From contig OZ241363.1 in the NCBI GenBank assembly GCA_965200575.1, forward strand, positions 1,722,398-1,786,397: a stretch of 64,000 bases of DNA, read 5' to 3'. Made by a program: the position numbers and the translations under genes. This DNA comes from Thermoanaerobaculia bacterium. Its GTDB lineage: Bacteria > Acidobacteriota > Thermoanaerobaculia > Multivoradales > Multivoraceae. Positions 16,588 through 33,399 of the stretch are shown here, in pieces. How positions within the stretch are numbered: position 1 is the first letter of the stretch; each line of letters starts with the position of its first letter. Below the pieces are notes generated by a model. The model was not told where the DNA came from. It did no database searches and was given only the letters and a program-made list of their open reading frames with translations.

Positions 16588-19500
16588 TCAGCTCCCGGCT
16601 GCGAGGTTGCGGAAGTACTCGTCCACCAGTTCCCGGTAGCCGGCGGGCACCTGGTCGGCGTTGCCCAAAAAGACACGTTCCGTTTCGCCGCCTCTGAGGT
16701 CTCGCCACAGGCGGTACTCGAACTGGCGGAGCCCTTCGACGATCTCGTCGCGGAGCCTGTCGAGGGCGAGCGGGTCGCGGTTCAGGCCGAGCAGGTCCAG
16801 GCCCCCCATTTGCTGCAGAAGGCTGTCGAGGTCGGCCGTCTCCATGCGTTGCTGCCGCAGGCCCTCGCGCAGACGCTCCAGGTCGGCCCGACGCTGCCGG
16901 ACTTCGCGGTCGAACTGCCGCAGATCCTCGGCCGGGAAGGTGCCCGGCTGCAGGAAGCCGCCCGAACTGGAACCGTACCGACTCTGCCGGCCTCGGTCCA
17001 TCCCGCCGTCAGGACTCGCCAGCCGGCCGCCGTTCCGGCCGCTCTCGGCCATCTGGTCGCGGCGACGCCCGTCGGCCTGCTGCTCGCCACCTTGCTGGCC
17101 GCCCTGCTGGCCGCCCGATTCCTGGCTGCCGGGCTGCTCACCCCGCTGCTCGGCGCCCTGTTGCTCGCCCACCCGCTGCTGGCCTTCCTGCTGCCCGGGC
17201 CGCTGGCCGAGGCGCCGGTCGCCCTCCGCCCGGTCGCGCAGCCGCGCCTCCATCGAGGCCAGGTTCTGGACCAGGTCGCGGGTCTGCTCCAGAAGCTGAT
17301 CCTCGCGGTCGCCGTTCCCTTCGCCCACGCTGGCCCGCGCGTCGGCGATCCGGTCGCCCACCTCGTCGATGTCGCGCCGGATCTCGCGCTCCAGCATCCG
17401 GGACAGGTCGGGTTGCCGCAACGAGCCCTTCGAGTAGCGGATCCGCTCCTTGAGCTGCTCGTCCCGGATGATCGTGGCCGACTCGCGCAGCTTGCGTGCC
17501 GTCTCCGGCTGGTCCTCACGCGTGCCCTGGCTCATCCGGTTGAGCTGAGCCTCCAGACCGGAGATCTCGTCCGTCAGGCGGTCCTTGCGTTCCATGATCC
17601 GCGCCATCAGGTCCCGCCGCTCGGCCTCCGTGAGGTCGCGGCGCCCCTCGCCGCCCTCCTGCCCGGACAGCTCGCCGACCTGCTCCATGATCCGTTCCTG
17701 CATTCCCGACACCCGGTCGGCGCGTTCCTGGAGCTCCTCCATGTCGCGGCCCAGCTGCCGACGCTGGTTCCGGTCGAGAAGCCGACGCGCCTCGCGCAGC
17801 TTGTCAAGCGCCGCGATGCCCTGAGATCCGGCGGTCGACGGCGACCCTGACGACCCGGCCTGCGACCGCTTCATCTCCTCGGCTGCCTGACGAAGCGCCC
17901 GGGTCGTCTCCTGGAACTCGGGACGCTGCTGCTCGCGAGCCAGACGCTCCAGGCGACGCGCCAGTTCCTCCGTCTCCTCGATCAGATCCTGCTGCCGACC
18001 GCCACCGCCACCACCCTGCTGGGAACGGCTGCGCAGCCTGTTCTGACGCTCGTTCTCCCGCTGCTGACGCCGCGCCAGTTCGCGCAGCTTCTGCATCAAC
18101 TCGTCGACTTCCGCCTGGGCCTGTTCGGCTTCGCCCCGCTGCACCGTCTCGTACTGGTTGCGCAGCTTGTCCAGCTCCAGCTCGAACAGGTCGGCCAGGT
18201 CCTCGGCCAGCTGCTGGCCGCCGCCGCCACCGCCGCCGGACTGGTCGAAGGACACCTGCATCTCGCGGAACGTCGATTCCGCCCGCTGAAGCGAAGCCAG
18301 CGCCTTCTTCTCCTCCGACAGCGCCTCCTCCGCGCGCTCGTGCTCGAGCTCGGCCTGGGCGGCCGCCATCTCCAGGTCCGCCTGCTGCAGATGCCGGATG
18401 ATCTGCGCGAACTCGTCGTCCTGAAGCAGCTGCTGGCCCCGGTTGCCCATGCGGGTCATCAGCTGGGCGACCTGGTCCCGAAGCCGCCCCTGCATCAGCG
18501 ACACCATCCGCATGTTCTCGGACAGCTCCGGGGCGTCGTACTCGTCCCGGTCGCGGACCAGGCGGAATGTCGCCGAGACAATCATCTTCTGCTGCGCGGA
18601 GAGCGCCTGGTCCATGCCGCCGCCGCCTCCGCCCATGGCGCCGCCCTGCTCGGCCTGGCGGTAGTTCCGGTCGAAGGGCCGCACCTCCAGGAAATAGATG
18701 TCGCTGATCGTCGGCTCGGAGCGTCCGCGATCCCAGGCCTCGGCCCAGTAGGAGATCGAGTCCCCCACCTGGAGCTCCATCTCCTCCAGGAACAGGGTGT
18801 GGCCGGCGCTGACCTTCTTCATCGAGGACGCGCTGTCGAGCAGCCGCACCTCCTCCTCCTCGCCGCCGTTCACCGCGTAGCGCAGGTTGAGGCGCCGGAC
18901 GCCGTAGTCGTCCTCGGCCTCGACCTGGGCGAACACCTCGTCGATCATCGTGACCTTCATGTCCCGACCTGGCGCCGTGAAGCGGACGATGGCCGGTTGG
19001 TCCTCGAGCGCCGTGACCATGTACTCCGCCGAGGCCCGGTGCCAGCGGCCCTCGTCGTCCATCAGCTCGACCCGGTAGTAGGTGCTGTCGTCCACCGTGA
19101 AGACCGCGGTCAGGCGGTCTCCCTGGACCGTCAGATCCTGCGGCGCCTCGCCCTCGATCAGCAGGCGCCCCGCCGGCACCTCGAAGATCGGCAGGATGCT
19201 GAACCGGACATCCGTGCCCTGGAGCACGGCGATGTCGCCGCCGTCCTCCACCGTCTGCGTCGTCAGACCGCTGTAGGCGGGGAAGTCGAACACGAGGTCG
19301 ATGCGGTCCACGTACGGCAGGTCCTTCACCCGGATTCGATAGACCGGCGAACGAACGCCCGCGGCATCGACGTAGTAGTCGGTGTCGGCGTTCAAGCTGA
19401 GCGCGATGAAGTCGTGCGTCGCCGCCGCCAGGTCGGCCGGGCGGTCGCCGGCCGTGCCGTCCTCGTCCGCCTCGGCGCCGGCCGCGACCCGGTTCATCGG

Positions 19501-20304
19501 CCACTGCTGCCAGTCGCCCTCTGCGTTCCCGTCGGCGTCGAGCGTGCGGAGGCCCACCTCCACGCGCTCCGGGTCGAAACCGAGCACCGCCGTGCTGATG
19601 AGCTGGTCGGATCCGCGTGCCACCGTGACGTTGCCCGGTTCGACGATCAGCCGGTACGGGTTCTCGGCAGCCGCGGCTCTCCAGGGCGCGAACAGCAGCA
19701 TGGCGCCGTGCTGAAGGAACGCCGGGCTGAGCAGAACCGCCACCATGCCCGTGCCGGCGACGCCGGCAAGGGCGGCGGAGAATCGCTGCAGGGCGCCGCG
19801 CTCGATGCCGGAGGCGAAGCCGCGCTGCTGGCAACGCTCGATGGCGTCCTCGAGGACGCGGCGCTGGAGCTCCGGGGACACCCGTTCGGCGTCCCGGGCG
19901 TGCTGCCGCACCGGACCCAGTTCCACCGCGCTAAGCACCGAAGCCCTGAGCTCGGGCTCGTGCTCCTCCAGGTAGAGCGCCACCTGTCGCCGCGAAACGC
20001 TCTGCGTGAGCGGGAGCATCAGGAACCGGACCGCAAGCGCGGCGAGCACGAGCCAGGCCAGCCAGCGGAACACCTCGACCGCCCGGTCGCTGTAGAGGAA
20101 GTAGTCCATCCCCCACACGGAGACCGCGAAGGCGGCAAAGCCGGTGACCAGGAGCATGACCAGGCCGCGCAGCGCCACCTTGGTCCGCCAGCGCCGCCGG
20201 ACTCGCCGGATAACCGCCAGCAGCTCGGCGTATGTCAGATCGTGGATGGGGTCGAATCCGGAAGCCATCGGGTCTCCTTCGTCAGCCTTGCTCGCCCGTC
20301 GCAC
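16588..20304 (-). CDS. DUF4175-like large membrane protein with Gln/Glu/Arg-rich coiled-coil and poly-Gly tracts
   Basis: 1238 aa. Two N-terminal TM helices and a long low-complexity region with GGGGGG runs. The C-terminus is DQVPAGYRELVDEYFRNLA. It overlaps the 3' end of the upstream BatA-like gene; an alternative start lies at M13 (20268). Confidence 0.7.
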   Translation of the reverse strand: MRRASKADEGDPMASGFDPIHDLTYAELLAVIRRVRRRWRTKVALRGLVMLLVTGFAAFAVSVWGMDYFLYSDRAVEVFRWLAWLVLAALAVRFLMLPLTQSVSRRQVALYLEEHEPELRASVLSAVELGPVRQHARDAERVSPELQRRVLEDAIERCQQRGFASGIERGALQRFSAALAGVAGTGMVAVLLSPAFLQHGAMLLFAPWRAAAAENPYRLIVEPGNVTVARGSDQLISTAVLGFDPERVEVGLRTLDADGNAEGDWQQWPMNRVAAGAEADEDGTAGDRPADLAAATHDFIALSLNADTDYYVDAAGVRSPVYRIRVKDLPYVDRIDLVFDFPAYSGLTTQTVEDGGDIAVLQGTDVRFSILPIFEVPAGRLLIEGEAPQDLTVQGDRLTAVFTVDDSTYYRVELMDDEGRWHRASAEYMVTALEDQPAIVRFTAPGRDMKVTMIDEVFAQVEAEDDYGVRRLNLRYAVNGGEEEEVRLLDSASSMKKVSAGHTLFLEEMELQVGDSISYWAEAWDRGRSEPTISDIYFLEVRPFDRNYRQAEQGGAMGGGGGGMDQALSAQQKMIVSATFRLVRDRDEYDAPELSENMRMVSLMQGRLRDQVAQLMTRMGNRGQQLLQDDEFAQIIRHLQQADLEMAAAQAELEHERAEEALSEEKKALASLQRAESTFREMQVSFDQSGGGGGGGQQLAEDLADLFELELDKLRNQYETVQRGEAEQAQAEVDELMQKLRELARRQQRENERQNRLRSRSQQGGGGGGRQQDLIEETEELARRLERLAREQQRPEFQETTRALRQAAEEMKRSQAGSSGSPSTAGSQGIAALDKLREARRLLDRNQRRQLGRDMEELQERADRVSGMQERIMEQVGELSGQEGGEGRRDLTEAERRDLMARIMERKDRLTDEISGLEAQLNRMSQGTREDQPETARKLRESATIIRDEQLKERIRYSKGSLRQPDLSRMLEREIRRDIDEVGDRIADARASVGEGNGDREDQLLEQTRDLVQNLASMEARLRDRAEGDRRLGQRPGQQEGQQRVGEQQGAEQRGEQPGSQESGGQQGGQQGGEQQADGRRRDQMAESGRNGGRLASPDGGMDRGRQSRYGSSSGGFLQPGTFPAEDLRQFDREVRQRRADLERLREGLRQQRMETADLDSLLQQMGGLDLLGLNRDPLALDRLRDEIVEGLRQFEYRLWRDLRGGETERVFLGNADQVPAGYRELVDEYFRNLAAGS

Positions 20305-22483
20305 GCCATGCTGTCACGACGGGGGCCGCGACCCGCCGGCGACGGTTGCCGAACAGGGTCTCGGCGGCGAGCACCAGGGCCGCGGCGGCAATCAGGAACC
20401 ACCACATGCGCTGGCGGCTCTGCCTCTCCTCGGGCGTGCTCTGCGCCGCCGCCTCCGCGGCCTCCTCCGCCTCCGCCGACGGCCGTATCCGCGAACCGAG
20501 CTCGTCCAGGTCCAGGCGGCCCAGGTCAGATTCCGCCACCGGCACGTTGGCCGCCAGGGTCAGCGGCGCCTCGGCGACGTCGCCGCGCAATTCGCGGAAA
20601 CTGTAGAAGCCCGGCTCCTCCACGTCGAGAAGCACGCTGTCGGCACTGGCGTCCAGGCGTCGTTCGCGTCCGGACGGCGCCACCGACAGGTAGCCCTCGG
20701 CTTCCGTCGGCAAGCCCGGCAGCTCCACCTGTGCGACCTCGCCCACGCGATACCACGACCGGGGCAGCGAATAGCCGGCCAGGTACTCGACCGACCGATG
20801 CACGAACGGAAGGAACACGGACTGAAGCGGCAGCGTGTTCCAGAACGTGTCGAACGACGTCGGCAGCACGAGCGCACGGCCCGACGCGACGCTCGCCGCC
20901 CCGCCCTCGCCCCCACCCTCGCGCCCTGTGCCGGGGAACAGGTCGATGAGTGCCGGCGAGCCGTCGTCGAAGCGGGCGATGGCGGCGGCGTCCTCGTCGG
21001 ACAGGAGGCGGTGGTAGCGGAAGAACGAGGCCGAGGAGAAGTCGCCGCTGCGCGCCCCCGCGAAGACGTCGAAGACGGGATGCCCTGTGTCGAACCAGGC
21101 GAGCGAGCCGGCGACGCCGGCGGTGCGGTCCACTCGCTGTTCGCTGGTCACGCCCAGCTCCCGCAGCAACGGAGAGGTCGACGTCATGCCGCGCTCGACG
21201 GCAAGCAGCAGGCCGCCGCCGCGGCGCACGAAGCCGACGAGGGCTTCGCTGGCAGAGGTCGAGAGCTGCTCGGCAGCGTCGTTCAGGACGACGACCGAAG
21301 TGCCGTCCAGCAGCGACGGCTCGAAGCCGGCAGCGCCGACCCGACGTACCCGGAAGCGCGGACGCCGGCCGAGCGCCAGCGCTTCCTCGATGTATCGGCC
21401 GCGTCGCCGGTCCCCGTCCGGCTCGACGACCAGAACGCCGACCCCGTGAGCCGGGGACAGGACGAAGTGAAACTCGTTGTCCACGGTCAGTGGATCGGTC
21501 CGCAACCTGACCGCGCCGCGGGTCGTCCGCCCTTGCTCCAGGACCTCCGGCGCAAAGCTGACCGTGGTCGACGAATCGGGGGCCAGCTCGACCGCCCGCG
21601 TCTGCACCACCTCCCGGTTCAGCAGCAGATCGATCTCGCCCCGCAGGGAGTGCTCGGCGACGCCGTCCGTGTCGACGTCCACATCGGCCGCGACCCGATA
21701 GCTGACCCGGGCCGCGACGGCCACCTGTTCCCGCTCTGCCGCCTCCCCTCCCCCGCCGGTGGGCGCCCGAGTGTGGTCGAAGACCAGGTCGGTCACCGCG
21801 GCGTTCCCGGCCGCACCGTCCTCGGCGCCCACGTCGACCAGGGTGAGCTCGACGCCGGGAGGCAGAGCCGCGACGTTGTCCGGCGTCCACGAAGACCGCT
21901 GGAAGTCGCTGACGATGACCAGCTCCCTCTCTGCATCGGCTGCCTGGGCCAGAACGCCGCGGGCCGCCTGGACGGCGGGCAGCAGGGCCGTGGCCCGTGG
22001 AGAGAGCTCGACATCCCGCAGCAGGGCCACAAGCGTCGCGCTGTCGGCCGTGGGCTGCGCCAGAATCTCCGCCTGGTCCGAGTACGCGATCAGGGCGCCC
22101 CGGTCCGCGACGCCGAGGTCGCCCAGCGCGACCTCCGCCGCCTCCACGGCGCCCTGCCAGCGATCGCCGAAGCCCATGCTGAAGGAGTTGTCCAGCAGGA
22201 CGACAACCAGCCGATTCGAGTCGCTCTCGCCGGCTGCCGGGCTCGCCACCAGAAACGGGCGGGCGAAGGCCAGCGCCAGCAGGGCCACGGCGGCGCAACG
22301 GAGCAGGAGCAGCAGCAGGTCGCGCAACCGGCGGCGCCTCGTCGACCGGAACGGCGCCTTGCTCACGAACATCAGGGACGGAAACTGCACCACCTGGCTG
22401 CGGTGACGCAGGCGCAGGTGGATCAGCACCGGAGCAGCAACGGCCAGCAGGCCGAGCAGGAAGAGGGGCGCAAGCAGTCCCAT
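20282..22483 (-). CDS. BatA-like protein: N-terminal double-TM 'aerotolerance regulator' domain plus vWA domain
   Basis: MGLLAPLFLLGLLAVAAPVLIHL (BatA_N/TIGR02226-type start), vWA-like LVVVLLDNSFSM, and a C-terminal TM segment. Confidence 0.8.
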   Translation of the reverse strand: MGLLAPLFLLGLLAVAAPVLIHLRLRHRSQVVQFPSLMFVSKAPFRSTRRRRLRDLLLLLLRCAAVALLALAFARPFLVASPAAGESDSNRLVVVLLDNSFSMGFGDRWQGAVEAAEVALGDLGVADRGALIAYSDQAEILAQPTADSATLVALLRDVELSPRATALLPAVQAARGVLAQAADAERELVIVSDFQRSSWTPDNVAALPPGVELTLVDVGAEDGAAGNAAVTDLVFDHTRAPTGGGGEAAEREQVAVAARVSYRVAADVDVDTDGVAEHSLRGEIDLLLNREVVQTRAVELAPDSSTTVSFAPEVLEQGRTTRGAVRLRTDPLTVDNEFHFVLSPAHGVGVLVVEPDGDRRRGRYIEEALALGRRPRFRVRRVGAAGFEPSLLDGTSVVVLNDAAEQLSTSASEALVGFVRRGGGLLLAVERGMTSTSPLLRELGVTSEQRVDRTAGVAGSLAWFDTGHPVFDVFAGARSGDFSSASFFRYHRLLSDEDAAAIARFDDGSPALIDLFPGTGREGGGEGGAASVASGRALVLPTSFDTFWNTLPLQSVFLPFVHRSVEYLAGYSLPRSWYRVGEVAQVELPGLPTEAEGYLSVAPSGRERRLDASADSVLLDVEEPGFYSFRELRGDVAEAPLTLAANVPVAESDLGRLDLDELGSRIRPSAEAEEAAEAAAQSTPEERQSRQRMWWFLIAAAALVLAAETLFGNRRRRVAAPVVTAWRATGEQG

Positions 22484-22493
22484 CGCCCAAGCC

Positions 22494-23387
22494 CTACCTC
22501 GTCTTCATGGCGTGAAAACGGGCGGACAGGTAGCCGTGCAGGGCCGCATCCAGCGGCCTGGAGATGTCGACCAGCGTGTAGTCGATGCCGGCTTCGACCA
22601 GGGAGCGATCGAGCGTGTCCACGTGCGCCTGGATCAGTTTCAGGTACTGATCCCGCAGAACGTCCGACTGCACCGCCTCGCGGGCGCCGGTCTCCAGGTC
22701 GCGCAGGTCCAGTTCGCCATCGAACTCGAAGCGGAGCTCCGCCGGATCCAGAAGGTGAAAGAGGATCACGTCGTTGCCCTTGTGCCTGAAGCCCGCAGCA
22801 GCCTTGATGACCGCCTCGGGTTCCTCATAGAAGTCCGAGATGAGCACCAGCATGCTCCGGCGCCGCACCGAATCGACGAGCTCGAGCAGCGGGTCGCTCA
22901 GCGAACCGGCGCCGCCCGGCTCGATGCGGTCGATCGTGTGCAGCACGACCTGCAGGTGCTTGGCCGCGGGAGGCACAAAGTCCACCACGCCGCTGTCGAA
23001 CGTGACCAGGCCGATGCGGTCCTTCTGCCTGGAGGCGAAGTAGCCCAGGCAGGCCGCCAGGTAGCGCCCGTAGTCGAGCTTGGTCAGGGCCCCGGTGCCG
23101 AAGTCCATCGACCGCGAGACGTCCAGCGCGATGGTCAGGTTCGTGTTCGTGTCGGCCTCGAACTCCTTGACGTAGAAGCGGTCCGTGCGGCAGAACAGCT
23201 TCCAGTCGACGCGCCGGATGTCGTCGCCGGGCTGATACGCGCGATACTCGGCGAAGTCCATCGACCGGCCCAGGAAGGGCGACCGGTGCAGACCGCTGAC
23301 GAAGCCCTCCACCACCGTCTTCGCGAGCAGGTCGAGGCTGCCGATGCGCGCAAGCGTCCGGGTGTCGACGAACCGGCCGTACTCCAT
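22494..23387 (-). CDS. DUF58 domain protein (MoxR-associated, vWA-like)
   Basis: GLHRSPFLGRSMDFAEYRAYQPGDDIRRVDWK...LTIALDVSRSM, the typical DUF58 signature. Confidence 0.85.
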   Translation of the reverse strand: MEYGRFVDTRTLARIGSLDLLAKTVVEGFVSGLHRSPFLGRSMDFAEYRAYQPGDDIRRVDWKLFCRTDRFYVKEFEADTNTNLTIALDVSRSMDFGTGALTKLDYGRYLAACLGYFASRQKDRIGLVTFDSGVVDFVPPAAKHLQVVLHTIDRIEPGGAGSLSDPLLELVDSVRRRSMLVLISDFYEEPEAVIKAAAGFRHKGNDVILFHLLDPAELRFEFDGELDLRDLETGAREAVQSDVLRDQYLKLIQAHVDTLDRSLVEAGIDYTLVDISRPLDAALHGYLSARFHAMKTR

Positions 23388-23399
23388 GACGACCTGCCG

Positions 23400-24470
23400 T
23401 CAGCTCATGCCGCTCGGCGTGACCGGCGCCCGCTCCAGCAGGCGATCGACGATCTCGTCGGTGGTGATGCGCTCGGACTCGGCGTGAAAGTTGGTCAGGA
23501 TGCGATGGCGCATGACCGGCCTGGCCAGCGCCCGCACGTCCTCGTGGGCCACGTGGTAGCGCCCGTCCATGAGCGCCTTCGCCTTGGCGCCCAGGACCAT
23601 GAACTGAGCCGCACGAACGCTGGCGCCGTACTGGACCCACTTGTTGACGAAATCGGGCGCCTCGGGGCTGTCGGGTCGGGTCATCCGCACCAGGTGGACC
23701 GCGTAGCGCAGCACCGGTTCGGCGATCGGCACCCGGCGCACCAGCCGGTGGAACGCCCGCAGGTCCTCGCCGGTGACGCGGGTCTCCATCTCGAACTCGC
23801 GGATGGTCGTGGTGGCATCGACGATCTGCATCTCCTCGTCCTCGGGCAGGTGGTCGATCACGATGTTGAACATGAAGCGGTCGAGCTGGGCCTCCGGAAG
23901 CGGATAGGTCCCCTCCAGCTCGATGGGGTTCTGGGTCGCGAAGACGAAGAACGGCTGCTCCAGGTCGTAGGTACGGCCCTGGACGGTGACCCGATGCTCC
24001 TGCATCGCTTCGAGAAGAGCCGCCTGGGTCTTCGGCGGCGTCCGGTTGATCTCGTCCGCGAGCACGATCTGGGCGAAGATCGGACCGGGCATGAACACCA
24101 TCTCGCGACGCCCGGTGTCGCTGTCCTCCTGGATGATGTCCGTGCCGGTGATGTCGCTCGGCATCAGGTCGGGCGTGAACTGGACGCGGCTGAACTTCAG
24201 ATCGAGCACCTTCGCCACGGTCTGCACGATCAGCGTCTTGGCCAGACCCGGCACGCCGGTGAGGATGCTGTTGCCGCCCACGAACAGGGTCATGAGCACC
24301 TGATCGAGCACCTCTTCCTGGCCGATGATCTGCTTGGCGAGCTGGGCGAGAACCTGCTCGCGACCGGCTTCGAGCCGGCCGGCGAGCTCGATGTCCGTCT
24401 CGCGGACGAGGCCCTCGCCGCCTGCTTCGCCACCGGTCACAAGCTCCACGCGTCCCTCTGTGTCGTTCAT
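23400..24470 (-). CDS. MoxR-family AAA+ ATPase
   Basis: Walker A LTGVPGLAKT, Walker B VLADEINR, and the MoxR-specific C-terminal region. Confidence 0.9.
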   Translation of the reverse strand: MNDTEGRVELVTGGEAGGEGLVRETDIELAGRLEAGREQVLAQLAKQIIGQEEVLDQVLMTLFVGGNSILTGVPGLAKTLIVQTVAKVLDLKFSRVQFTPDLMPSDITGTDIIQEDSDTGRREMVFMPGPIFAQIVLADEINRTPPKTQAALLEAMQEHRVTVQGRTYDLEQPFFVFATQNPIELEGTYPLPEAQLDRFMFNIVIDHLPEDEEMQIVDATTTIREFEMETRVTGEDLRAFHRLVRRVPIAEPVLRYAVHLVRMTRPDSPEAPDFVNKWVQYGASVRAAQFMVLGAKAKALMDGRYHVAHEDVRALARPVMRHRILTNFHAESERITTDEIVDRLLERAPVTPSGMS

Positions 24471-24543: not shown

Positions 24544-25362
24544 TCAATGCGTCATGCCGTAGATCAGGTAGTTGACGCCGAGCTTGAAGCCCTTCTGGGT
24601 CACGTCCACCGGGTAGTGGTTCGTCTCCGACCACTCCCAGAAGTCGCCGACGTCCATGTTGTAGTTGGCGACCGCCATCAGTCGTCGGCTCGGGTCGTTG
24701 TCCTCGAAGATGCCGAAGATCCGCCCTCGGACCGGCCAGAAGCCGGGCTCGTTGATGTCGAAGTTGATGTCCTCGAGCACGAAGAACGACCGGAAGACGG
24801 GGTGGTCCACGGTCAGCGGGACGAGTTCGAAGCCCGGCAGCAGCCGTCCCATCTGCCGCTCGAAGTTCTCCCACTGCACCGGATAGCCGCGCACGTCGAA
24901 GAAGTCGTCGATCACCAGGAAGCCGCCCTTGAGCAGCCAGGAGCGCAGGCTCTCGACCTCCTCCTCGGTCGGGTTCCAGAAGCCCGGCTCGCACAGGTAG
25001 GCCCACGGGTGCTCGAACAATCGCGGGTCGCTCAGCTCGAGGACGTTGCCGCCCCCGGTCTGCACCTCCACGTCCGTGATCTCCTCGACGATGCGGGTGA
25101 AGTTCTGCTCGGCGTACGGATAGTCGTGGTTCCACTTGAGGTCCAGGCCCCACATGAACGGGCCGCCTCCCCAGACGGTGGGCTCGAAACGGATGCGGGC
25201 GAAGGTGAAGCCGCCGGCGTAGGGGAACGACTCCGTCTCGACTCGGGGCGAGGCGCGGCGCCAGGTCTCGTCTCGCGCCCACAGCCCGGCCGCGACCAGC
25301 AGGAGCGCAACCGCTCCAGCCATCGCCGCGACCCGACCCCTCGGGCTACCACCTGTCCTCAC
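24544..25362 (-). CDS. DUF4159 domain protein (paralog A)
   Basis: Signal peptide; FLVIDDFF...GFKLGVNYLIYGMTH C-terminus typical of DUF4159. 4-bp overlap with the upstream gene. Confidence 0.7.
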   Translation of the reverse strand: MRTGGSPRGRVAAMAGAVALLLVAAGLWARDETWRRASPRVETESFPYAGGFTFARIRFEPTVWGGGPFMWGLDLKWNHDYPYAEQNFTRIVEEITDVEVQTGGGNVLELSDPRLFEHPWAYLCEPGFWNPTEEEVESLRSWLLKGGFLVIDDFFDVRGYPVQWENFERQMGRLLPGFELVPLTVDHPVFRSFFVLEDINFDINEPGFWPVRGRIFGIFEDNDPSRRLMAVANYNMDVGDFWEWSETNHYPVDVTQKGFKLGVNYLIYGMTH

Positions 25363-28178
25363 GGCTGCCCTTCCTTCTCCCGGTCTTCCGACGCACTGCC
25401 CCGACTCGGCCGCCGTCCCTTCCCTGCCAGGTCGAGCAGCAATTTCTGGGCCGCATCGTACCCCGGCGCCACGGCCAGGGCGCGCACCACCGAGCGGCGC
25501 GCGGCCTCGCGCTGACCTGCGTCGCGCTCGGCGGCGGCAAGCCGGTAGAACGCCTGCGCGCGGTCCGCCGGGTCCAGGGCCACCAGCGCACGACGTTCGC
25601 GCACGGCCGTCTCGAATCGGCCCTCCCTGCTCGCCTGCTCCGCCAGCCGCCGGTGCACGTCCGCGTCGAAGGGCGAGATCCAGAGCATCCGCTCCAGGAT
25701 GACGGCCGCATCCCCGCTGCGCCCGGCATCGGTCAGAAGGTCGGCCAGGGACAGGTGCTCGTTCCAGGATGTCTCGTTGTGGGCCACCAGCGTCTCGAGC
25801 GCGGCGATCGCCTCCTCCGGGCGCTCCTGCCGTCGGTAGACCTCCGCGAGCAGCGAGTACGCGTTGCCGGCACCCACGAACTCGGGGAACAGGTCGCGGC
25901 CGCGCAGCAGCGGCGCCTCGGCCTCGTCGTGGCGTTCCGAGGCGACCAGGGCGTTGCCCAGCGTCATCTGCACGCGGAAGTCGTCCGGATTCTCCTCGGC
26001 CATCCGCTCCAGCGCCTCCATGTCAGGCCCCTGGCCGGCGAACAGGTTGCGTCTCGGCGCACGGGAAGGCCCGCCCTCGTTCTCGCTCTCTCCGCCCTCG
26101 CCGTCCGAGACCCCGGGAACGTCGCCCAGGGAAGCCAGCGCCCGGCCGTAGCGCTGCCGGAGGTGGCGGAAGAACCGTTCGTCGAACTCCTCGAGCGACA
26201 GGTCCATCGACTGCCGGAACACCTCCTCCGTGGTCAGGCCGTCCCGGTAGCCGGCGAGCATGGTCCGGATCGTCTCGAAGCCGTACTCGCCTTCGATCCA
26301 GTCGCAGATCAGCGACGCCTGGAAGTAGGACAGTCCGATCTGGCTCGGGAACTTCGGGCGCATGAAGCCGTCGTTCAGCTCGGCGATGCCGAGCAGCTCG
26401 CCGTCCCGCAGCGAAGTCACGAAGTTGACCTGCACGTCGTCGCCCCAGCCGGGCCGCGCCAGCCGTTCCTCGAACACCGACAGCCCCTCCGTCAGCCAGC
26501 GGGGGATCTTCGCGTCGGTAACCAGCAGCGTGAACGTGTGCGCGAGCTCGTGCCAGAGGGTGGAACCCCAGTTGAAGTGCCCAACCCTGCGGGCGGACGG
26601 TGAGTCGAGCGCCAGGACGGGGCCGAAGCAGACGCCCAGGGCGCCCAGACCGGCGAGTCCGACGGTGCGCACCGAGAAGTCGGCATGGGACGGATAGACC
26701 TCCACACGAATCGGGGTCGGCGGCTCGAACCGGTAGCGCTCGACCAGCACCGACCAGGCCTCCTCCGCCAGTTCCACCATGTAGGGCCCCAGCAGATCGG
26801 CCTCGCTCTCGTGGATGTGAAACTCGAAGTGCTCGCTCTGGATCGTCCGATACTCCACGAAGGTGTCGACCAGGTCGAGCGTGTTCTTTATCCAGACGTT
26901 GTACGGGTCGCCCGCGAACGCCGTCTCCAGGTTCTCCCGTCCGGCCTCGATCTCGCCCAGCCGCAGCTGGTTCTGCCCCAGCAGGCCGTAGCCGCGCCAC
27001 GACTTCGGGTCGATGCGCACCGCCTCGGCGGCGAAGTCCCTGGCCTGCGGATAGAGCCGGTTCTCGACGCTGATGTCGGCGAGCTCGTTGAACAGGTCGG
27101 CGTAGCGCGGGTTGTCCGCCAGGATCTCGTCGCGGCGGCGAGCGAACTCGTCGTCTCGATCCTCCAGGAAGTCGACCGCGGCCAGCAGAGTTCGGCCGGC
27201 GAGCGAGAACGGGTCCACCGCGAGGGCCTGCTCCGCCTGCTCGCGAGCACGGGCAAACTGCTCGGAGGCGAGCGACCGGCGCGCCCGGTACACCCGTGCC
27301 TCCACCTGGCGCGAATTGACCTGAAGCGCCCGGTCGAGCAACTCCATCGACCGCGGGTCGCCGTCGAAACTCATCGTCCGCGCCATCGCGAGCAGCGCGC
27401 GCGGATGATGCGGATTGACCTCCAGCACCTCGCCAATGGCGGCGCGGGCCTGCTGGCTGTCGTACTTCTCGAGGAACAGCTCGCCGAGGAGAATCCGGGG
27501 CAGTGGCCAGCCCGGGGCAGCAGCCACCGCCTCGTCGTAGGCCCGCAGCGCGTCCTTGAACAGCTCCGGATCGTCCCGCCCCAGCAGCTGGCAGGCGCGA
27601 GCCACCGCCAGCAGTTCCTCTGCCGTGCGGGCCTCGCCCCGGTTGTAGGCATCGATCATCGCGTAGAAGCCGCGCGTGGCCTCGTCCACCTCGCCCCGCT
27701 CCCAGCCCAGCAGCGCAAGCTCGAAGGACGCCGTCAGCCGATCCGGCCCATCCGCCGCAACCGCCGCCTCGAACGACGACCGGGCAGCGGCGCGGTCGCC
27801 GAGGAGGAGCGAGACCCGACCGCGCAGAAGCTCGAGGTCCCGGCTCCCGGCATCGCCTGCGTCGCCAAGCGCCTCGTCGAGCGCGGCAGCCGCCTCCTCG
27901 TGCTGCCCGGTAGCGACGAGCGCGTCCACCCGCAGCCGCAGCGCCCGCGTCGCCGCCGCGTCCGGTTCGTCGTCCCCGATCGCATCCAGGCCGTTCAGGG
28001 CGTCCTCGTACCGCCCGGTGCGGATCAGCCTCTCGGCGTTGTCGAGCGTCGGCTGCGCGGCCTGGGAAGCCGCGGGCGCCGTTTCCTGGGCAACCGCCGG
28101 CGCTGGAGCACCCGCCGCCAGCAACAGGGCCAGCGCCAGGGCAACCGCAGACCAGGCGGAGACGGGACGACGCATCAC
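25359..28178 (-). CDS. TPR-repeat protein with an embedded HExxH-E zinc-metallopeptidase-like domain (peptidase MA-like)
   Basis: 939 aa, signal peptide, multiple TPR-like helical repeats. The central segment GSTLWHELAHTFTLLVTDAKIPRWLTEGLSVFEE carries a HELAH...E gluzincin motif. Confidence 0.65.
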   Translation of the reverse strand: MMRRPVSAWSAVALALALLLAAGAPAPAVAQETAPAASQAAQPTLDNAERLIRTGRYEDALNGLDAIGDDEPDAAATRALRLRVDALVATGQHEEAAAALDEALGDAGDAGSRDLELLRGRVSLLLGDRAAARSSFEAAVAADGPDRLTASFELALLGWERGEVDEATRGFYAMIDAYNRGEARTAEELLAVARACQLLGRDDPELFKDALRAYDEAVAAAPGWPLPRILLGELFLEKYDSQQARAAIGEVLEVNPHHPRALLAMARTMSFDGDPRSMELLDRALQVNSRQVEARVYRARRSLASEQFARAREQAEQALAVDPFSLAGRTLLAAVDFLEDRDDEFARRRDEILADNPRYADLFNELADISVENRLYPQARDFAAEAVRIDPKSWRGYGLLGQNQLRLGEIEAGRENLETAFAGDPYNVWIKNTLDLVDTFVEYRTIQSEHFEFHIHESEADLLGPYMVELAEEAWSVLVERYRFEPPTPIRVEVYPSHADFSVRTVGLAGLGALGVCFGPVLALDSPSARRVGHFNWGSTLWHELAHTFTLLVTDAKIPRWLTEGLSVFEERLARPGWGDDVQVNFVTSLRDGELLGIAELNDGFMRPKFPSQIGLSYFQASLICDWIEGEYGFETIRTMLAGYRDGLTTEEVFRQSMDLSLEEFDERFFRHLRQRYGRALASLGDVPGVSDGEGGESENEGGPSRAPRRNLFAGQGPDMEALERMAEENPDDFRVQMTLGNALVASERHDEAEAPLLRGRDLFPEFVGAGNAYSLLAEVYRRQERPEEAIAALETLVAHNETSWNEHLSLADLLTDAGRSGDAAVILERMLWISPFDADVHRRLAEQASREGRFETAVRERRALVALDPADRAQAFYRLAAAERDAGQREAARRSVVRALAVAPGYDAAQKLLLDLAGKGRRPSRGSASEDREKEGQP

Positions 28179-29227
28179 GGTTCAGGCGCTCCGTCCGGGT
28201 CGGCCCCGGCGTCCTCCAGGTCCCTGTCGACCAGCGCAAGCGCCAGCAGAAGCTCCTCGAGCCGGGCAAGGTACGCCTCCTCGTCCAGTTCGTCCCGCGC
28301 GCCGCCGGCCTGCAGGTCCTGGATCTGCCGCTGGAGCGCTTCCCGGCGGCCCCACAGCGCGCGGGTCTCGGCGGTAAGCAGGTCCGGCATCGACTCCTGG
28401 CCAAGATGCACGAGGCTCGCCAGCCGACCGTCGTCGGCCGCTCCCTCGGCGGCGATGCCGGTGGGTTCCAGGCTGCCCATGCCGTCGCCGTCGTCGTCCA
28501 GGAGGGCATTCTCGGTCTGGAGCAGGCCCTCCTGAGAGTAGTGATGCTCGACCTCGCTCCGGGCGTACTCGAACGCCTCCAGGGCGGTGGTCCTGCCGTC
28601 CTTGTTCGCGTCCCCGGCGCCGCCGTCGAAAGCGTCGGCAAGGTAGCCGCCGAACAGGGTCTCGTTCGCCTGACCGCCAGACCGGGTGGCGGTGATCACG
28701 ACGCGGCCCTGGCTCGAAAGCGGCGCGATGAAGCCGCCCGAGGCGGAGCTCGCGTTGACGAACACCACCCTGCGGCCCTCGAGCCGGTCCAGGGCGTCGG
28801 CGTACTGGTCGACCACGAGGTCGCGCCCCGGCAGGTTGAAACGGGGCGGGCCGGCCGCGCCGCTGCCGTGACCGAACAGGACGATCCAGACGTCGTCCCC
28901 GGCGGAGGACCGTTCCACCAGGGCGGAGAGCTCGGCCAGCACGTTCTCGCCCGTCGAGCGGGCGTGGATCCTCTCCGGGTCCAGCTCCTCGCGCTCGCCC
29001 AGGTAGACCACGTTCGCGGGATCGAGACCTGCCTCCAGGGCGGCGTCCCTCACCCTGGTGGCCCAGAGGTGGAAACGCTCCGTGTAGGCCTGCTCGCCGC
29101 CCACGCCGGCCACCACCAGCAGGTGGGTCTCGGCCGCGACCGGCGCGACAGGAAACACGGGCGCTGCAAGGACCAGGACGGCGGCCGCAACGCCGGTCAG
29201 ACCGTGGCGGCGGTTCACGCCGGTCAT
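28175..29227 (-). CDS. legumain/peptidase C13-like domain protein with Cys-to-Ser substitution at the catalytic position
   Basis: HLLVVAGVGGEQAYTERFHLWA and VWIVLFGHGS (His site) align with legumain. RVVFVNASSASGGF aligns with MVFYIEACESGS, placing Ser where the catalytic Cys sits. ATGA overlap with the upstream gene; signal peptide. Confidence 0.55.
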   Translation of the reverse strand: MTGVNRRHGLTGVAAAVLVLAAPVFPVAPVAAETHLLVVAGVGGEQAYTERFHLWATRVRDAALEAGLDPANVVYLGEREELDPERIHARSTGENVLAELSALVERSSAGDDVWIVLFGHGSGAAGPPRFNLPGRDLVVDQYADALDRLEGRRVVFVNASSASGGFIAPLSSQGRVVITATRSGGQANETLFGGYLADAFDGGAGDANKDGRTTALEAFEYARSEVEHHYSQEGLLQTENALLDDDGDGMGSLEPTGIAAEGAADDGRLASLVHLGQESMPDLLTAETRALWGRREALQRQIQDLQAGGARDELDEEAYLARLEELLLALALVDRDLEDAGADPDGAPEP

Positions 29228-31542
29228 GCCATCCCCAGGCGTCGCCGCACCGCCCACTCGGCGCTCAGCAGAGCGACCAGAAGCAGGAACAGGAAGGGCA
29301 TGTCCCAGAGGTCCCGCGCCTCGCGCACGACCGCTCCGTCGCTACTCACGGCCAGCTCGTCCTCCAGCCGGTCCCAGCGCCCGACGTCGATCTGCCGTCC
29401 CCCGGTCTCGTCGGCCACCCGTCGCAGCACGGAATCCCGACGGGCCGCGCCGAACAGCTCCTCGTTGAGCTGGTCGACTGCGAAGCGGGACACGGCCGTG
29501 CCAAGGACCTCGCCCTCCGAGGTGGCCTCTACCTCGACTTGATGAAGACCCGGCTCGGAGGCCGTCCAGGCGCCGACGAACTCCCCGTCCCGCTCCACCG
29601 ACCAGTCGAGCGGCACCTCGGCCAGGCTCCCCGACGGCGTCTCCACCGTGGCGACGACCCGAGCGCGGTTCACCTCCTGGAAGGCCTCGTCGCGGACCGT
29701 GGCCCGCAGATGGACCACGCTGCCGGGTTCGAAGCGGTCGCGGTCGGCCTCGACCTCGATGCGGTCGGGAACGTACGACACCAGCCAGCGGAGCATCTGC
29801 CGCCACAGGCGCTCGTGGGTCTGGTCCTCCAGCGGAATGCCCGCGTTCATCTGCCAGTGCCAGGAGTCGTGCGGCGTGAACGCGATCGCCCGCCCGCGGC
29901 CGATCCGGTGGTGAGCCAGCATTACCAGCGGCTCGCTCGCAATGGGGCTCGCCGCCTCGATCAGGACGGTGGCGCCGGCCTTGATCTCGGTCGCGCGCTG
30001 GTAGGAAGAGAGCGGCGGCAGGGTCGGCCAGAGCTGGTTCGACTCCTCGCGGTCGTCGCGCAGCAGGGTCGCCGGATGGGCACGGCCACCGGGCGTCAGC
30101 TCCAGGCGCAGATCCGTCAGCAGTTGGGGTCGCTCCTCGCCAGAGGGGCGCTCCTCCAGCACGACGGGCGACAGCTCCGCGAGCGGCGTGCCGGCGAAGC
30201 CGCCCTCGGAGAACGCCCGCCGTCCGCCCAGCAGCAGCACGCCACCGCCGCGGCGGGCCGCGAAGTCGACCAGCATCCGCATCTGGTCCTGCGTGAAGAA
30301 GCTCGCCTCCATGCTGCCCAGAATCACGCCGCTGTACTCGAAGAGATCCTCGCGGCGGGTCGGGAAGCCGTCGAGTCGCCGGGTGTCCTCGTCGAAGTTC
30401 ATGCCGTAGAACTTGTTGGCGGCCTGCCGCGTCATCGAGACGACGTGCAGGTTCTCGTCCGGACGCACGGCCCGGCGCAGGAACTTGGATTCGTCGCGCG
30501 GCTCGCCCTCGAAAAAGAAAATCCTCTCCCGCCGCTTGAGCACCTCCACGAGCGCGATGCGCTCGTTGTTGAGCAGCAGTTGCTCGCCCGGCTGGCCGGC
30601 CACGCGGAACCGGAACTCGCGGGCGCCTTCGAGATCGGCCGAGAACATGACCCGGGCGGTGACCGCGGACCCTCCGCGCGGGAACGTGACCTGCTCCACG
30701 TTCACGATCCGCCCGTCGTCCTCGACTTCCAGGGCGACGGTGCGGCCGCCAAAGCCGGTCTGGGACAAGGTGACCTCGACCTCGACGCTGGCGCCTTCGA
30801 GCACGCGGCGCGGGGCGACCACCCGGGACACCTCCACGTCCTTCGCGAGCCGGGGCCGCCCGAGCCCGACCGTGTGGACCGGCGTGCCCGCGGCCTTCAG
30901 CTCGAGCAGGGCGTCCGCCAGTTCCGCGGGAGCCGAATCGGCGCCGTCGGAAAGGAGGACCAGGCCCGACAGCGGAAGGCCCGACAGCTCCTCGCCGGCG
31001 GAGAGAAGCGCCTCGCCGATGCGGCTCTCGGAGCGGGAAAACTGCAGCTGCGCACTCGATTCGATGCGCTCGGTGCCACGTCCGAACGCCAGCAGCCGGA
31101 CCTGGAACCGCTCGGACAGCTGATCGAGCAACGACCCCGGTTCTTCCGACAGCGCCTCCAGCACCGTGCCGGCCCGCGTGCCGTCCCGGGCGGCGTCCCC
31201 GTCGGGCATTGCCATGCTGCGCGAGTCGTCGACCACGATGCCGACGAAGGACTCCTGCGGCACGACCGTGGACAGGACCAGCGCCGGCTGCAGCAAACAG
31301 AGAACGAGAACGCAGATTGCCAGCGAGCGGAGGGTCGGAGGCAGCCAGCGCAGGCGCCGCGCCGCCTCGGTACGGCCGGCGGCGCCGCCGATCTCGCGCC
31401 GGTAGCTGAACGCGGCCACGACCAGCAGGACGCCCACCGCCACCGCCGCCAGCTGCATCCAGCCCGGACTGGCGAGGGCCAGCCGCCCCTCGGCGAACAG
31501 ACCCGGCCGGTACTTGAACAGGAACTCGAACAGGCCAGCCAT
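29224..31542 (-). CDS. vWA domain-containing membrane protein (BatA/BatB-like, with C-terminal class-I GATase-like/ThuA-like region)
   Basis: 772 aa, N-terminal TM segments, vWA core (FVGIVVDDSRSM...LLSDGAD), and a C-terminal TM segment. Confidence 0.7.
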   Translation of the reverse strand: MAGLFEFLFKYRPGLFAEGRLALASPGWMQLAAVAVGVLLVVAAFSYRREIGGAAGRTEAARRLRWLPPTLRSLAICVLVLCLLQPALVLSTVVPQESFVGIVVDDSRSMAMPDGDAARDGTRAGTVLEALSEEPGSLLDQLSERFQVRLLAFGRGTERIESSAQLQFSRSESRIGEALLSAGEELSGLPLSGLVLLSDGADSAPAELADALLELKAAGTPVHTVGLGRPRLAKDVEVSRVVAPRRVLEGASVEVEVTLSQTGFGGRTVALEVEDDGRIVNVEQVTFPRGGSAVTARVMFSADLEGAREFRFRVAGQPGEQLLLNNERIALVEVLKRRERIFFFEGEPRDESKFLRRAVRPDENLHVVSMTRQAANKFYGMNFDEDTRRLDGFPTRREDLFEYSGVILGSMEASFFTQDQMRMLVDFAARRGGGVLLLGGRRAFSEGGFAGTPLAELSPVVLEERPSGEERPQLLTDLRLELTPGGRAHPATLLRDDREESNQLWPTLPPLSSYQRATEIKAGATVLIEAASPIASEPLVMLAHHRIGRGRAIAFTPHDSWHWQMNAGIPLEDQTHERLWRQMLRWLVSYVPDRIEVEADRDRFEPGSVVHLRATVRDEAFQEVNRARVVATVETPSGSLAEVPLDWSVERDGEFVGAWTASEPGLHQVEVEATSEGEVLGTAVSRFAVDQLNEELFGAARRDSVLRRVADETGGRQIDVGRWDRLEDELAVSSDGAVVREARDLWDMPFLFLLLVALLSAEWAVRRRLGMA

Positions 31543-31599: not shown

Positions 31600-32532
31600 T
31601 CAATGCGACATCGCGTAGACGACGAAGTTGACCCCCATCTGGTACGCGTAGTGGGAGAAATGCACCGGGAACCACTGGGCTTCCGCCCACTCCCACGCGT
31701 CGCCCAGGTCCGTGTTCCAGTTGATCACGACCATCAGCCGGCCGTCCTCGTCGTGGATGCCGCGCACGTGGGGCGTGTAGCCGTCCTTCTCCCAGGTCGG
31801 ACCGCCGAACACCTGTCCCCGATTCGGCACCTGGACGATCTCGTCCACGTTGTAGAAGCAGTGGAAGATCGGGTGGTCCAGGGGAAGCTCCACGACCTCG
31901 TGGTCCGGCAGCAAGAGGGACAACTCCCGCTCCAGGTTGGCCCATTCCCAGCTGCCCCAGAAGTCGTCGATGACCCAGAAACCGCCGGCCAGGAGGTACT
32001 TGCGGAGCGCCTCGCGCTCGTCGTCGCGCAACGCCATGTAGCCGACCTCGACCGAGTAGAGGAAGGGGTAGAGGAAAAGGTCCGGATCGGTCGCCTCCAG
32101 GGCGTTGTACCAGTCGTAGGCGTCGAGCTGGTCCAGCAGCCGCTTCAGACCGATCATGAACTGCACGTCGGCCTTCGGGAAGTCGACCGACCAGCTGCCG
32201 CGCCCCATGTAGGGGCTGCCGCTGTAGGCCAGGCGAGTGAAGTAGAACTCGCGCAGCACCTCGTCGGGCTCGACCGGCCGTGGCAGGTAGCGCTCGAAGA
32301 GCGGCATCGCCCGCGGCGGCAGGGAACGGTGCTGGCGCCACGAAGTGTCGCGTCGTTCGTCGACGATGCGCCTTTGGGGCGCCGCCGTGGCTGGGGCGGT
32401 CGGGGCGATACCGGTCAGGGCAGCGCCGGTCAGGGCAGCGCCGGTCGGCTCCGGCCCGATCAGCAGCGCACCGGCCCCGCCGGCCAGCAGGGCGGCGCCC
32501 AGAACCATGAATGTCGTTCGCCGCCGCGGCAT
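31600..32532 (-). CDS. DUF4159 domain protein (paralog B)
   Basis: Signal peptide (FMVLGAALLAGGAGA); FWVIDDFWGSWEW...GVNFVVYAMSH C-terminus. An alternative upstream start lies at 32610. Confidence 0.65.
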   Translation of the reverse strand: MPRRRTTFMVLGAALLAGGAGALLIGPEPTGAALTGAALTGIAPTAPATAAPQRRIVDERRDTSWRQHRSLPPRAMPLFERYLPRPVEPDEVLREFYFTRLAYSGSPYMGRGSWSVDFPKADVQFMIGLKRLLDQLDAYDWYNALEATDPDLFLYPFLYSVEVGYMALRDDEREALRKYLLAGGFWVIDDFWGSWEWANLERELSLLLPDHEVVELPLDHPIFHCFYNVDEIVQVPNRGQVFGGPTWEKDGYTPHVRGIHDEDGRLMVVINWNTDLGDAWEWAEAQWFPVHFSHYAYQMGVNFVVYAMSH

Positions 32533-32643
32533 CGGGCGCAGATCGTAGCGCACCCGGCAGCATGGCCCGGGTGTTTTCGCCCCGGACCCTGGCGGCGGCG
32601 GGTCACCCACCCGACGACGCGCCGGGCGAGCCCGGAGGCCGGA

Positions 32644-33399
32644 TCACCGCGGGTCCGGTTTCTGCTCTTCCGGCAGCACCTCGACGCCGCTCATCGACTC
32701 GACCAGGGTGAAGATCAGATCGTCCTCGTCCGCTCCCAGCTGGGCCGCCAGACTGCGCATCACCTGGTCGATGGAAGCGACCAGGGCACTGAAGCGGAAC
32801 TTCCAGCGCCCCTCCTCCAGCACGAACCCGTACTCGATCTCGTCCAGACCGCCAGCCAGCGCGGGGTCCTCGAGCGACGCGCGGGTGCGGGCCTGGCCGA
32901 AGGCCTCACCGCCCTCGATGCGGACATCGCCGAGCGCCAGCTGCTCAATGGCCGCGGTGTTGATCCAACCCAGGTCCATCGCCCGGACGATGACGTCGCC
33001 GAGCTCCAGCGCCGCCAGCTCCTGGTGGTCGAACTGGTGGCGGAAGGCCACGACGAGAAACCTGTCGACGAACCTGCGGGCGGCCACCTCCTCCGCGCTG
33101 CCCTCGACCGTGAGCCGGCGCAGGTCGCGGTAGTACCGCTCCGTCTCCCGGTCGACCAGCGCCGCCGCGGTCTCTCCGTCTCCGGCAACCAGCGCCTCGC
33201 GGTAGGCCTCGAAGGTCGCCCGCACGGCGGCCTCGGCCGCTCGCGCTTCGGCACTGCCTGTGGCCTGCTCCTCGGGCGGCGTCTGCGGGACCGCCCAGGG
33301 AGCCGCTGGCGACCCTGCCCGAGCCGCTGCGCCGGGCGACAGTGCCAGCAGCGCCAGGAGCGCCATCAGGGTCGCCGCCGCCGCCACCGGGTGGCTCAC
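32644..33399 (-). CDS. hypothetical secreted protein
   Basis: GTG start overlapping the upstream stop (GTGA), signal peptide MALLALLALSPGAAARA. No recognisable family. Confidence 0.45.
   Translation of the reverse strand: MSHPVAAAATLMALLALLALSPGAAARAGSPAAPWAVPQTPPEEQATGSAEARAAEAAVRATFEAYREALVAGDGETAAALVDRETERYYRDLRRLTVEGSAEEVAARRFVDRFLVVAFRHQFDHQELAALELGDVIVRAMDLGWINTAAIEQLALGDVRIEGGEAFGQARTRASLEDPALAGGLDEIEYGFVLEEGRWKFRFSALVASIDQVMRSLAAQLGADEDDLIFTLVESMSGVEVLPEEQKPDPR

Follow-up and report, generated by a model that had tools for sequence, protein, structure and literature searches.

A predicted zinc peptidase domain between two tetratricopeptide repeat arms is a conserved component of a MoxR gene cluster in Acidobacteriota and Gemmatimonadota

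Is a tetratricopeptide repeat (TPR) protein encoded beside a MoxR ATPase a binding scaffold or an enzyme? The question is raised by a gene at 25359..28178 on the minus strand of a window of 64,000 nucleotides (the whole stretch of DNA analysed, positions 1,722,398 to 1,786,397 of contig OZ241363.1) from a Thermoanaerobaculia bacterium. MoxR-proper AAA+ ATPases, together with DUF58 and BatA/VWA proteins, are among the most widespread bacterial ATPase systems without a known substrate, and stress tolerance is among their published phenotypes. Their operons have yielded phenotypes without mechanism, such as aerotolerance in Bacteroides (PMC5700661, PMC3557215) and envelope and morphology defects in Rhizobium (as summarised in PMC5700661), and the Borrelia protein BB0173 has a periplasmic VWA domain (PMC5700661, PMC3557215). 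We find that the central segment of the TPR protein is a gluzincin peptidase domain, a reading supported by five independent lines: Pfam, conservation, structural models, fold matches and residue mapping. With moderate confidence, we propose that the protein is an exported, periplasmic zinc endopeptidase of the gluzincin type, whose TPR arms would select substrates or partners and which would be a subunit of an envelope-spanning machine built by the MoxR cluster.

The open reading frame (ORF) encodes 939 amino acids when read from its GTG. Translation probably begins at the next codon, an ATG at nucleotide 28175, giving 938 amino acids, since the identical database protein (P0001) has this length and the ATG forms a TGATG stop/start overlap with the upstream gene. 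ORF translation, P0001 and Pfam together identify the product as a TPR/Peptidase_MA_2/TPR protein. The segment WHELAHTFTLLVTDAKIPRWLTEGLSVFEE is found at residues 542-571 of the minus-strand translation; within it, HELAH occupies residues 543-547 (26538..26552) and WLTEG residues 561-565 (26484..26498), with E564 at 26487..26489. Read on the plus strand, the same coordinates give a nonsense translation. An HExxH motif by itself is weak evidence, as 0.023 occurrences are expected by chance in a protein of such composition; that it is not a chance occurrence follows from the Pfam score, the conservation and the fold. Stop-poor ORFs in other frames overlap the peptidase gene on both strands (25653..28641), for instance 26685..28535 (plus strand, 616 amino acids) and 26023..28641 (minus strand, 872 amino acids). 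They are shadow ORFs, usual at 70% GC, and not genes.

The central domain, residues 443-683 (26130..26852), matches Pfam PF13485 Peptidase_MA_2 with 42.2 bits in the whole protein and 45.4 bits when excised, against a curated gathering threshold of 32.4 bits. The match spans positions 63-195 of the 201 in the profile, which correspond to the helical two-thirds of the domain. The same family was matched by 26 of 26 aligned homologues (best E 1.4e-16), with no other peptidase family among the matches. We then measured conservation in an alignment of the window protein with 116 full-length homologues of 45-74% identity (n=117). H543, H547, E564 and Y618 are present in 117/117 sequences, as are W561 and G565 of WLTEG; E544, E570 and E571 are each found in 116. 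The central domain is the best conserved part of the protein, with a mean identity of 66% and 22% near-invariant columns, compared to 50-53% and 5-8% in the TPR arms.

AlphaFold models were obtained for the full-length protein (mean predicted local distance difference test, pLDDT, 88.9; predicted template-modelling score, pTM, 0.85) and for the domain alone (pLDDT 87.6, pTM 0.86). In both models HELAH lies in a helix at 537-553 and E564 in the one that follows, 560-574, against which a sheet of five strands packs (443-447, 451-456, 490-495, 515-517 and 521-525), and in both the TPR hairpins start and finish outside the peptidase region. The predicted domain thus has the two subdomains of the thermolysin-like fold, a mixed beta-sheet and a helical subdomain, with the gluzincin arrangement of HExxH on the active-site helix and a Glu ligand on the following one. 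The best fold matches were lugdulysin (M30, 16.4) and Grimontia collagenase (M9, 16.3), followed by ERAP1 (M1, 14.4), ColT (M9, 13.9), the M1 enzymes APN, PSA and LTA4H (13-13.8), M61 enzymes (10-12) and thermolysin (M4, 9.5). When the family profile was compared by hhalign to the catalytic fragment of LTA4H (a sequence checked to be identical to PDB 8twx_A residues 262-452), GSTLWHELAHTFTLLVTDAKI--PRWLTEGLSVFEERL aligned with E 1.9e-4, equating H543, E544, H547 and E564 with LTA4H H295, E296, H299 and E318 and WLTEG with WLNEG. The gap in this alignment accounts for the HExxH-x16-E spacing, against x18 in M1 enzymes, as a two-residue deletion. By conservation, model and hhalign, H543, H547 and E564 are therefore predicted zinc ligands and E544 the predicted catalytic base. 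Y618 (26325..26327), on helix 613-632, is a candidate transition-state-stabilising residue by its invariance and by analogy with the tyrosine of M1 gluzincins (Tyr383 in LTA4H).

These results bear on an earlier note on this DNA, made from the sequence alone, which had reported a HELAH...E motif in a 939-residue TPR protein and read it as a peptidase. The motif is there as described and its two histidines and third ligand are invariant; among the profiles the note had named, Peptidase_MA_2 scores above its cut-off, with no match to Peptidase_M1 or Peptidase_M48; and the motif lies in a predicted peptidase fold between the TPR arms rather than within a TPR helix.

The remainder of the protein is consistent with export and with protein binding. 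Residues 1-30 (28089..28178) form a typical Sec-type signal peptide as judged by sequence inspection and hydropathy, MMRRPVSAWSAVALALALLLAAGAPAPAVA followed by QE, with n-, h- and c-regions, an AxA site (predicted cleavage AVA/QE) and no lipobox Cys. Pfam TPR families match on either side of the central domain, at about residues 85-425 and 714-830, and the model shows helical repeats at residues 45-442 (26853..28046, about 20 helices) and 720-919 (25422..26021); the C-terminal arm is matched by TPR_2, TPR_14 and TPR_8 and by PDB sequences of the OGT TPR region. Between the peptidase domain and this arm lies a disordered linker rich in Gly, Glu and Pro (residues 684-719, 26022..26129), with pLDDT below 50 at 688-716 and the lowest conservation of the protein (38%). 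The flanking TPRs and the signal peptide that the earlier note had described are thus both borne out. Its further reading as a periplasmic metalloprotease gains a conserved gluzincin signature, a predicted fold and an export signal, from which we infer the periplasmic location and the catalysis.

The most conserved stretch of the whole protein is a near-invariant Gly-rich block, HADFSVRTVGLAGLGALGVCFGPVLALDSPSAR, at residues 498-530 (26589..26687), which includes the predicted strands ahead of the active-site helix. This block is a candidate edge strand for substrate binding, and may act as a mobile flap, a plug or a hinge of that strand. It holds H498 (112/117) and D500 (117/117), which would be candidates for a fourth ligand like that of the E. 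coli M48 peptidase BepA.

We further asked which kind of gluzincin this is. None of the Pfam or NCBIfam models of M1, M9, M30 and M48 matches the domain, and Peptidase_M1 found no match in 26 members even at E≤10. Ahead of the HExxH helix is a strand with the sequence G512-A-L-G515-V, in which an invariant Gly stands where the GxMEN motif of M1 enzymes has the Glu that anchors the substrate amino terminus, an equivalence based on sequence pattern, position and secondary structure. Since this Glu is replaced and since the best fold matches, M30 and M9, are endopeptidases, the protein more likely acts as an endopeptidase on proteins or long peptides than as an aminopeptidase. M1 enzymes (aminopeptidase N, ERAP1, LTA4H) also differ by their x18 spacing and their N-terminal beta-sandwich domain, which is absent here; the helical arms of the window protein are canonical TPRs on both sides. 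The M9 collagenases (ColG, ColH, ColT and the Grimontia enzyme) and M30 lugdulysin and hyicolysin have the closest folds, yet share 10-15% identity with no detectable sequence homology, and the Peptidase_M9 profile is unmatched; they are toxins or degradative enzymes that Firmicutes and Vibrionaceae secrete, without TPR arms or MoxR context. PF13485 itself (clan Peptidase_MA) shares the HExxH...E signature, but it is a computational family whose model is silent on the flanking TPR arms and the MoxR context seen here.

This architecture is the norm of a large family. A word-indexed search returned more than 1,000 homologues, and among the best 120 nearly all are 850-950 amino acids long and carry PF13485. 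An exhaustive profile search returned 6,217 cluster representatives at E≤1e-3, 1,472 of them at E≤1e-30, and its best matches have the domain near residue 400 of proteins of 830-910 amino acids, such that an N-terminal TPR arm, the peptidase domain and a C-terminal TPR arm are the rule. Relatives are encoded in at least 581 species-representative genomes. Among the matches listed, 80 of 80 genomes are metagenome-assembled genomes (MAGs) of Acidobacteriota (Thermoanaerobaculia, Holophagales, Ca. Multivorans, Vicinamibacteria, Ca. Marinacidobacterales) or Gemmatimonadota, and the nearest relatives of the window protein, with 85-87% domain identity, come from Thermoanaerobaculia and Holophagales MAGs. 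Recognition as a peptidase is not new in itself: PF13485 is precomputed for these entries, and the name 'peptidase MA family metallohydrolase' has been given to two partial ones, although in public databases nearly all others go by 'tetratricopeptide repeat protein', a label that hides the enzyme. We considered whether long members (1240-1444 amino acids) could be Rosetta-stone fusions with cluster partners and rejected this, as they just carry extra N-terminal TPRs. In the 1444-residue P0342 (locus L086), a weak STN (secretin/TonB N-terminal) match precedes the additional TPRs, which hints at an outer-membrane-associated variant. Full-length paralogues of about 30% identity (L085, GCA_016220045.1; L087, GCA_029260755.1; L088, GCA_030748635.1) have the same TPR-peptidase-TPR layout and keep HExxH-x16-W..EG. 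Their neighbours are all envelope-related, comprising a PMT_2 glycosyltransferase, PspA with flotillin, and a divergently oriented MlaDEF operon; the gene downstream of these paralogues was tested as a diverged DUF4159 and rejected.

In the window, the peptidase gene is the fourth of nine co-directional minus-strand genes running from 32610 down to 16588. It is preceded by a DUF4159 protein (copy a, 31600..32610, Pfam 146 bits) with an N-terminal transmembrane (TM) segment or signal anchor, a 772-residue membrane protein with weak GATase1_like and MG2 matches and three predicted TM segments (29224..31542), and an exported Peptidase_C13-like, that is legumain/caspase-like, protein (28175..29257, Pfam 22.4 bits against a gathering threshold of 22.8). 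After it come a second DUF4159 protein (copy b, 24544..25362, 145.9 bits), whose gene overlaps the end of the peptidase gene by 4 nucleotides, a MoxR-type AAA+ ATPase without TM segments (AAA_3 and AAA_lid_2, 23400..24470, 207.9 bits), a DUF58 (VWA-like) protein, also without TM segments (22494..23387, 159.4 bits), a BatA double-TM and VWA membrane protein (20282..22483; BatA 67, VWA_2 54.6 and TIGR02226 68.7 bits), and a 1238-residue membrane protein with a weak DUF4175 match (16588..20304). AAA_3 adjacent to DUF58 and BatA/VWA identifies the cluster as MoxR-proper (MRP-type). The second to fifth genes overlap successively by 34, 4 and 4 nucleotides, which suggests that they are translationally coupled.

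To evaluate how stable this association is, we compared the nine window proteins by tblastn to 84 loci and counted colinear, same-strand matches among the contigs reaching the expected position. The GATase1-like (68/68), C13-like (75/75), DUF4159b (78/78), MoxR (76/76), DUF58 (74/74) and BatA-VWA (73/73) genes were always found. The DUF4175-like gene was scored at 66/67 by the script, the sole miss being an artefact of high-scoring segment pair position at a locus where the gene is present. Seven of the eight partner genes are thus colinear at 100% of covered positions in Acidobacteriota and Gemmatimonadota. DUF4159a is at its usual upstream position in 50/66 loci and is missing mainly in Gemmatimonadaceae. 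In four homologue contigs of 45-51% identity, the gene order is identical and the flanking genes are unrelated. Altogether, the MoxR-cluster orthogroup of the TPR-peptidase is a fixed subunit of an eight-to-nine-gene MoxR cluster.

Several observations concern the partner proteins and the borders of the cluster. In the C13-like protein, G129-H130-G131 is invariant in 75 orthologues, and where the nucleophile Cys would be expected the sequence is N-[AT]-x-S171-A-S173-G (S171 in 75/75), a conserved Cys being found nowhere; by its sequence, it could be either a Ser-nucleophile clan-CD-like hydrolase or a pseudo-protease. The upstream DUF4159 copy is absent from its usual place in 16/66 loci (including L036, L050, L053, L058, L061, L062, L067, L070, L077, L079, L080 and L084), while the downstream copy is universal; L078, one of the 16, carries DUF4159a on the opposite strand downstream, and L065 shows the same minus-strand placement. 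The only solved relative of DUF4159b is the uncharacterised Hoch_4089 (PDB 4i66). By hydropathy, the BatA-VWA and GATase1-like proteins have a predicted topology in common: a pair of TM segments at the N-terminus, then a domain of about 620-660 residues that extends to the third, C-terminal TM segment, and an Arg-rich tail behind it. This layout suggests a pair of periplasmic modules that are anchored in a similar way. Farther upstream, in the same orientation as the cluster, are an ORF at 34295..35752 (485 amino acids, TPR_14 30.1 bits) and, between it and the cluster, one at 32644..33576 with no Pfam match; both lie outside the conserved unit in the other loci examined. A scan for sigma-70 promoters and intrinsic terminators found none at either end of the cluster, which is uninformative at 70% GC.

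How could such a protein work? In the mechanism that we propose, zinc would be bound by two histidines of one helix, H543 and H547, together with E564 of the helix that follows, E544 would activate a water molecule and Y618 would probably stabilise the transition state. The predicted fold of this catalytic domain is nearest to those of M1 enzymes and of the peptidase domains of the M30 and M9 endopeptidases. The TPR arms, of about 400 and 200 residues, would most likely select protein substrates or partners. They may also form a cap over the active site, comparable to the TPR pocket in BepA and to the all-helical domain IV that covers the active site of M1 enzymes. A weak hint of such a cap comes from the M1 enzymes aligning over 299-317 residues with the full-length model but over about 220 with the isolated domain, the Z scores being similar, and the pTM of 0.85 suggests that the predicted domains have a defined arrangement. 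By hydropathy and the positive-inside rule, MoxR and DUF58, the only two proteins without hydrophobic segments, would be cytoplasmic, while the other seven, which have signal peptides or TM anchors, would expose large domains outside the cytoplasm. The machine would then comprise two cytoplasmic parts and up to seven membrane-anchored or exported parts (the two DUF4159 proteins and the GATase1-like, C13-like, BatA-VWA, DUF4175-like and TPR-peptidase proteins), and the MoxR/DUF58 module would remodel or activate the periplasmic one. A more specific version, which we consider speculative and rather unlikely, is that ATP hydrolysis by MoxR/DUF58, passed on through the BatA/VWA, GATase1-like and DUF4175-like proteins, would switch on, load or position a periplasmic module of the TPR-gluzincin and the Ser-for-Cys legumain-like protein. 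If true, this would provide an energy-dependent control of proteolysis in the ATP-free periplasm and name a client of MoxR-proper in these phyla.

A number of observations weigh against an active periplasmic endopeptidase working within a MoxR machine. We found no experimentally characterised PF13485 member in the searchable literature. The evidence for the fold rests on predicted models, as no solved structure is detectable by sequence: in the PDB, the full protein matched only TPR proteins, the isolated central domain had no match, and its profile yielded no credible one. The hhalign probability against LTA4H is just 48%, over 36 columns. One homologue (P0073, 47% identity) has WHAIGH in place of WHELAH, retaining both His ligands and WFSEG but with the catalytic Glu changed to Ala; this may reflect a sequencing error or a variant that is naturally inactive. 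The Gly-rich tip (508-511) of the most conserved block has pLDDT below 50 in both models. Low confidence in a near-invariant segment is nevertheless what would be expected of a mobile flap or edge-strand hinge, and the tip may resemble the functionally important double-Gly hinge that precedes the edge strand of clostridial collagenases. Synteny, for its part, denotes a functional linkage without direction or mechanism. Lastly, the paralogues L085, L087 and L088 lie outside MoxR clusters, which indicates that the TPR-peptidase-TPR design is older than its recruitment to the MoxR cluster and that the peptidase has no intrinsic need of MoxR.

Some of these points would fit a protein that has kept the gluzincin fold but is catalytically dead and serves as a binding platform in a MoxR/BatA complex, as many Bat-operon TPR proteins are assumed to do. 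The E544A change in P0073, the adjacent C13-like protein without a canonical Cys nucleophile, which shows that dead or non-canonical enzymes may occur in the cluster, and our finding no activity reports for the family in the searchable literature all speak for such a scaffold. Dead enzymes usually lose their catalytic residues first, whereas here all four catalytic and ligand residues, like Y618, show little or no variation in 117 sequences whose identity goes down to 45%, the motif is still present at about 30%, and conservation is higher in the catalytic domain than in the arms; we consider a dead scaffold unlikely. An equally low probability is given to a hydrolase of gluzincin fold whose substrate is a small or non-protein component of the envelope, such as peptidoglycan stem peptides or a lipid-linked peptide. 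The epoxide hydrolase activity of LTA4H illustrates non-peptidase chemistry on this fold, and the paralogues adjoin MlaDEF, PspA/flotillin and PMT_2 genes, but TPR arms normally bind polypeptides. The related Rhizobium MoxR operon also affects the cell envelope and morphology, as summarised in PMC5700661. Against this idea, neither the sequence nor the neighbours give a specific pointer to a small molecule, and Pfam finds no peptidoglycan-binding domain.

Two other enzymatic readings appear improbable. An M1-like aminopeptidase trimming nutrient peptides in the periplasm, with an incidental position beside MoxR, would agree with the residue correspondence to LTA4H, but it is opposed by the unmatched Peptidase_M1 profile, by the Gly in GALGV in place of the Glu that binds the amino terminus and by the endopeptidases among the best fold matches; an incidental context is also hard to reconcile with synteny at 100% of covered loci and overlapping start and stop codons. 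A secreted, collagenase-like extracellular protease used for feeding would account for the signal peptide and for the M9 peptidase domains among the closest folds, and Acidobacteriota and Gemmatimonadota include many degraders. However, Pfam finds no collagenase activator, PKD, collagen-binding (CBD) or secretion-system sorting domain in the window protein, the gene is coupled to those of membrane-anchored partners and always lies beside those of the cytoplasmic MoxR and DUF58, and TPR arms of this size are usual in adaptors between proteins of the cytoplasm or periplasm rather than in degradative enzymes that are secreted. Finally, the cluster could be a conflict or anti-phage system of the MoxR-vWA type with the peptidase as its effector. 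Its MoxR protein does score 42 bits on Pfam bpMoxR, a model describing MoxR-vWA-beta-propeller ternary conflict systems (PMC7159879). AAA_3 is a far better match (208 bits), PADLOC models give 0 matches for all nine proteins, no beta-propeller or effector-type domain is present, and the single-copy, syntenic, core-genome-like vertical conservation in two phyla is unlike that of patchy defence islands, making this reading highly improbable.

An exported zinc peptidase within a MoxR cluster, the reading that we favour, can be compared to two known systems. BepA of E. coli is likewise a Sec-exported zinc peptidase fused to TPR repeats, which cup its M48 domain and recruit BAM and LptD, while an active-site plug regulates access (PMC7950410, PMC8423444). 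It differs from the window protein by its family (M48 rather than MA_2), its one TPR domain of about 170 residues rather than two arms, and the absence of a MoxR operon; its plug histidine H246 has no demonstrated equivalent here. The NCBIfam BepA model NF052400 gives 16.5 bits, far below its cut-off of 570, and aligns just with the TPR stretch at residues 776-889. The cluster as a whole resembles the Bacteroides Bat operon and Rhizobium leguminosarum RL3499-RL3502, which also combine a MoxR AAA+ ATPase, DUF58, BatA-type double-TM/VWA proteins and nearby TPR proteins (PMC5700661, PMC3557215). Described Bat operons encode BatB, BatC, BatD and BatE, with VWA, plain TPR and SH3 domains and no peptidase, whereas the window cluster has two DUF4159 proteins, the GATase1-like and C13-like proteins, the TPR-gluzincin and the DUF4175-like giant. 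The window protein shares the operon context of BatB (VWA and TM), BatC (plain TPR) and BatE (TPR and SH3) (PMC5700661), but lacks VWA, TM and SH3 and has the peptidase domain in addition.

In the searchable literature, we found no characterisation of this family, no description of a TPR-gluzincin-TPR architecture, of this nine-gene MoxR cluster composition or of a legumain-like protein with Ser for the catalytic Cys in such a cluster, and no functional study of DUF4159/DUF4175/PF07090 or of DUF4159 with MoxR. The family would represent a second case, unrelated to BepA, of a periplasmic zinc peptidase, here a predicted one, enclosed by TPR repeats, and by this reading thousands of database entries named only 'tetratricopeptide repeat protein' are predicted enzymes. 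For the MoxR systems of Acidobacteriota and Gemmatimonadota, the TPR-gluzincin is a candidate enzymatic component, and as such may give experiments a way to find the targets of MoxR/BatA systems.

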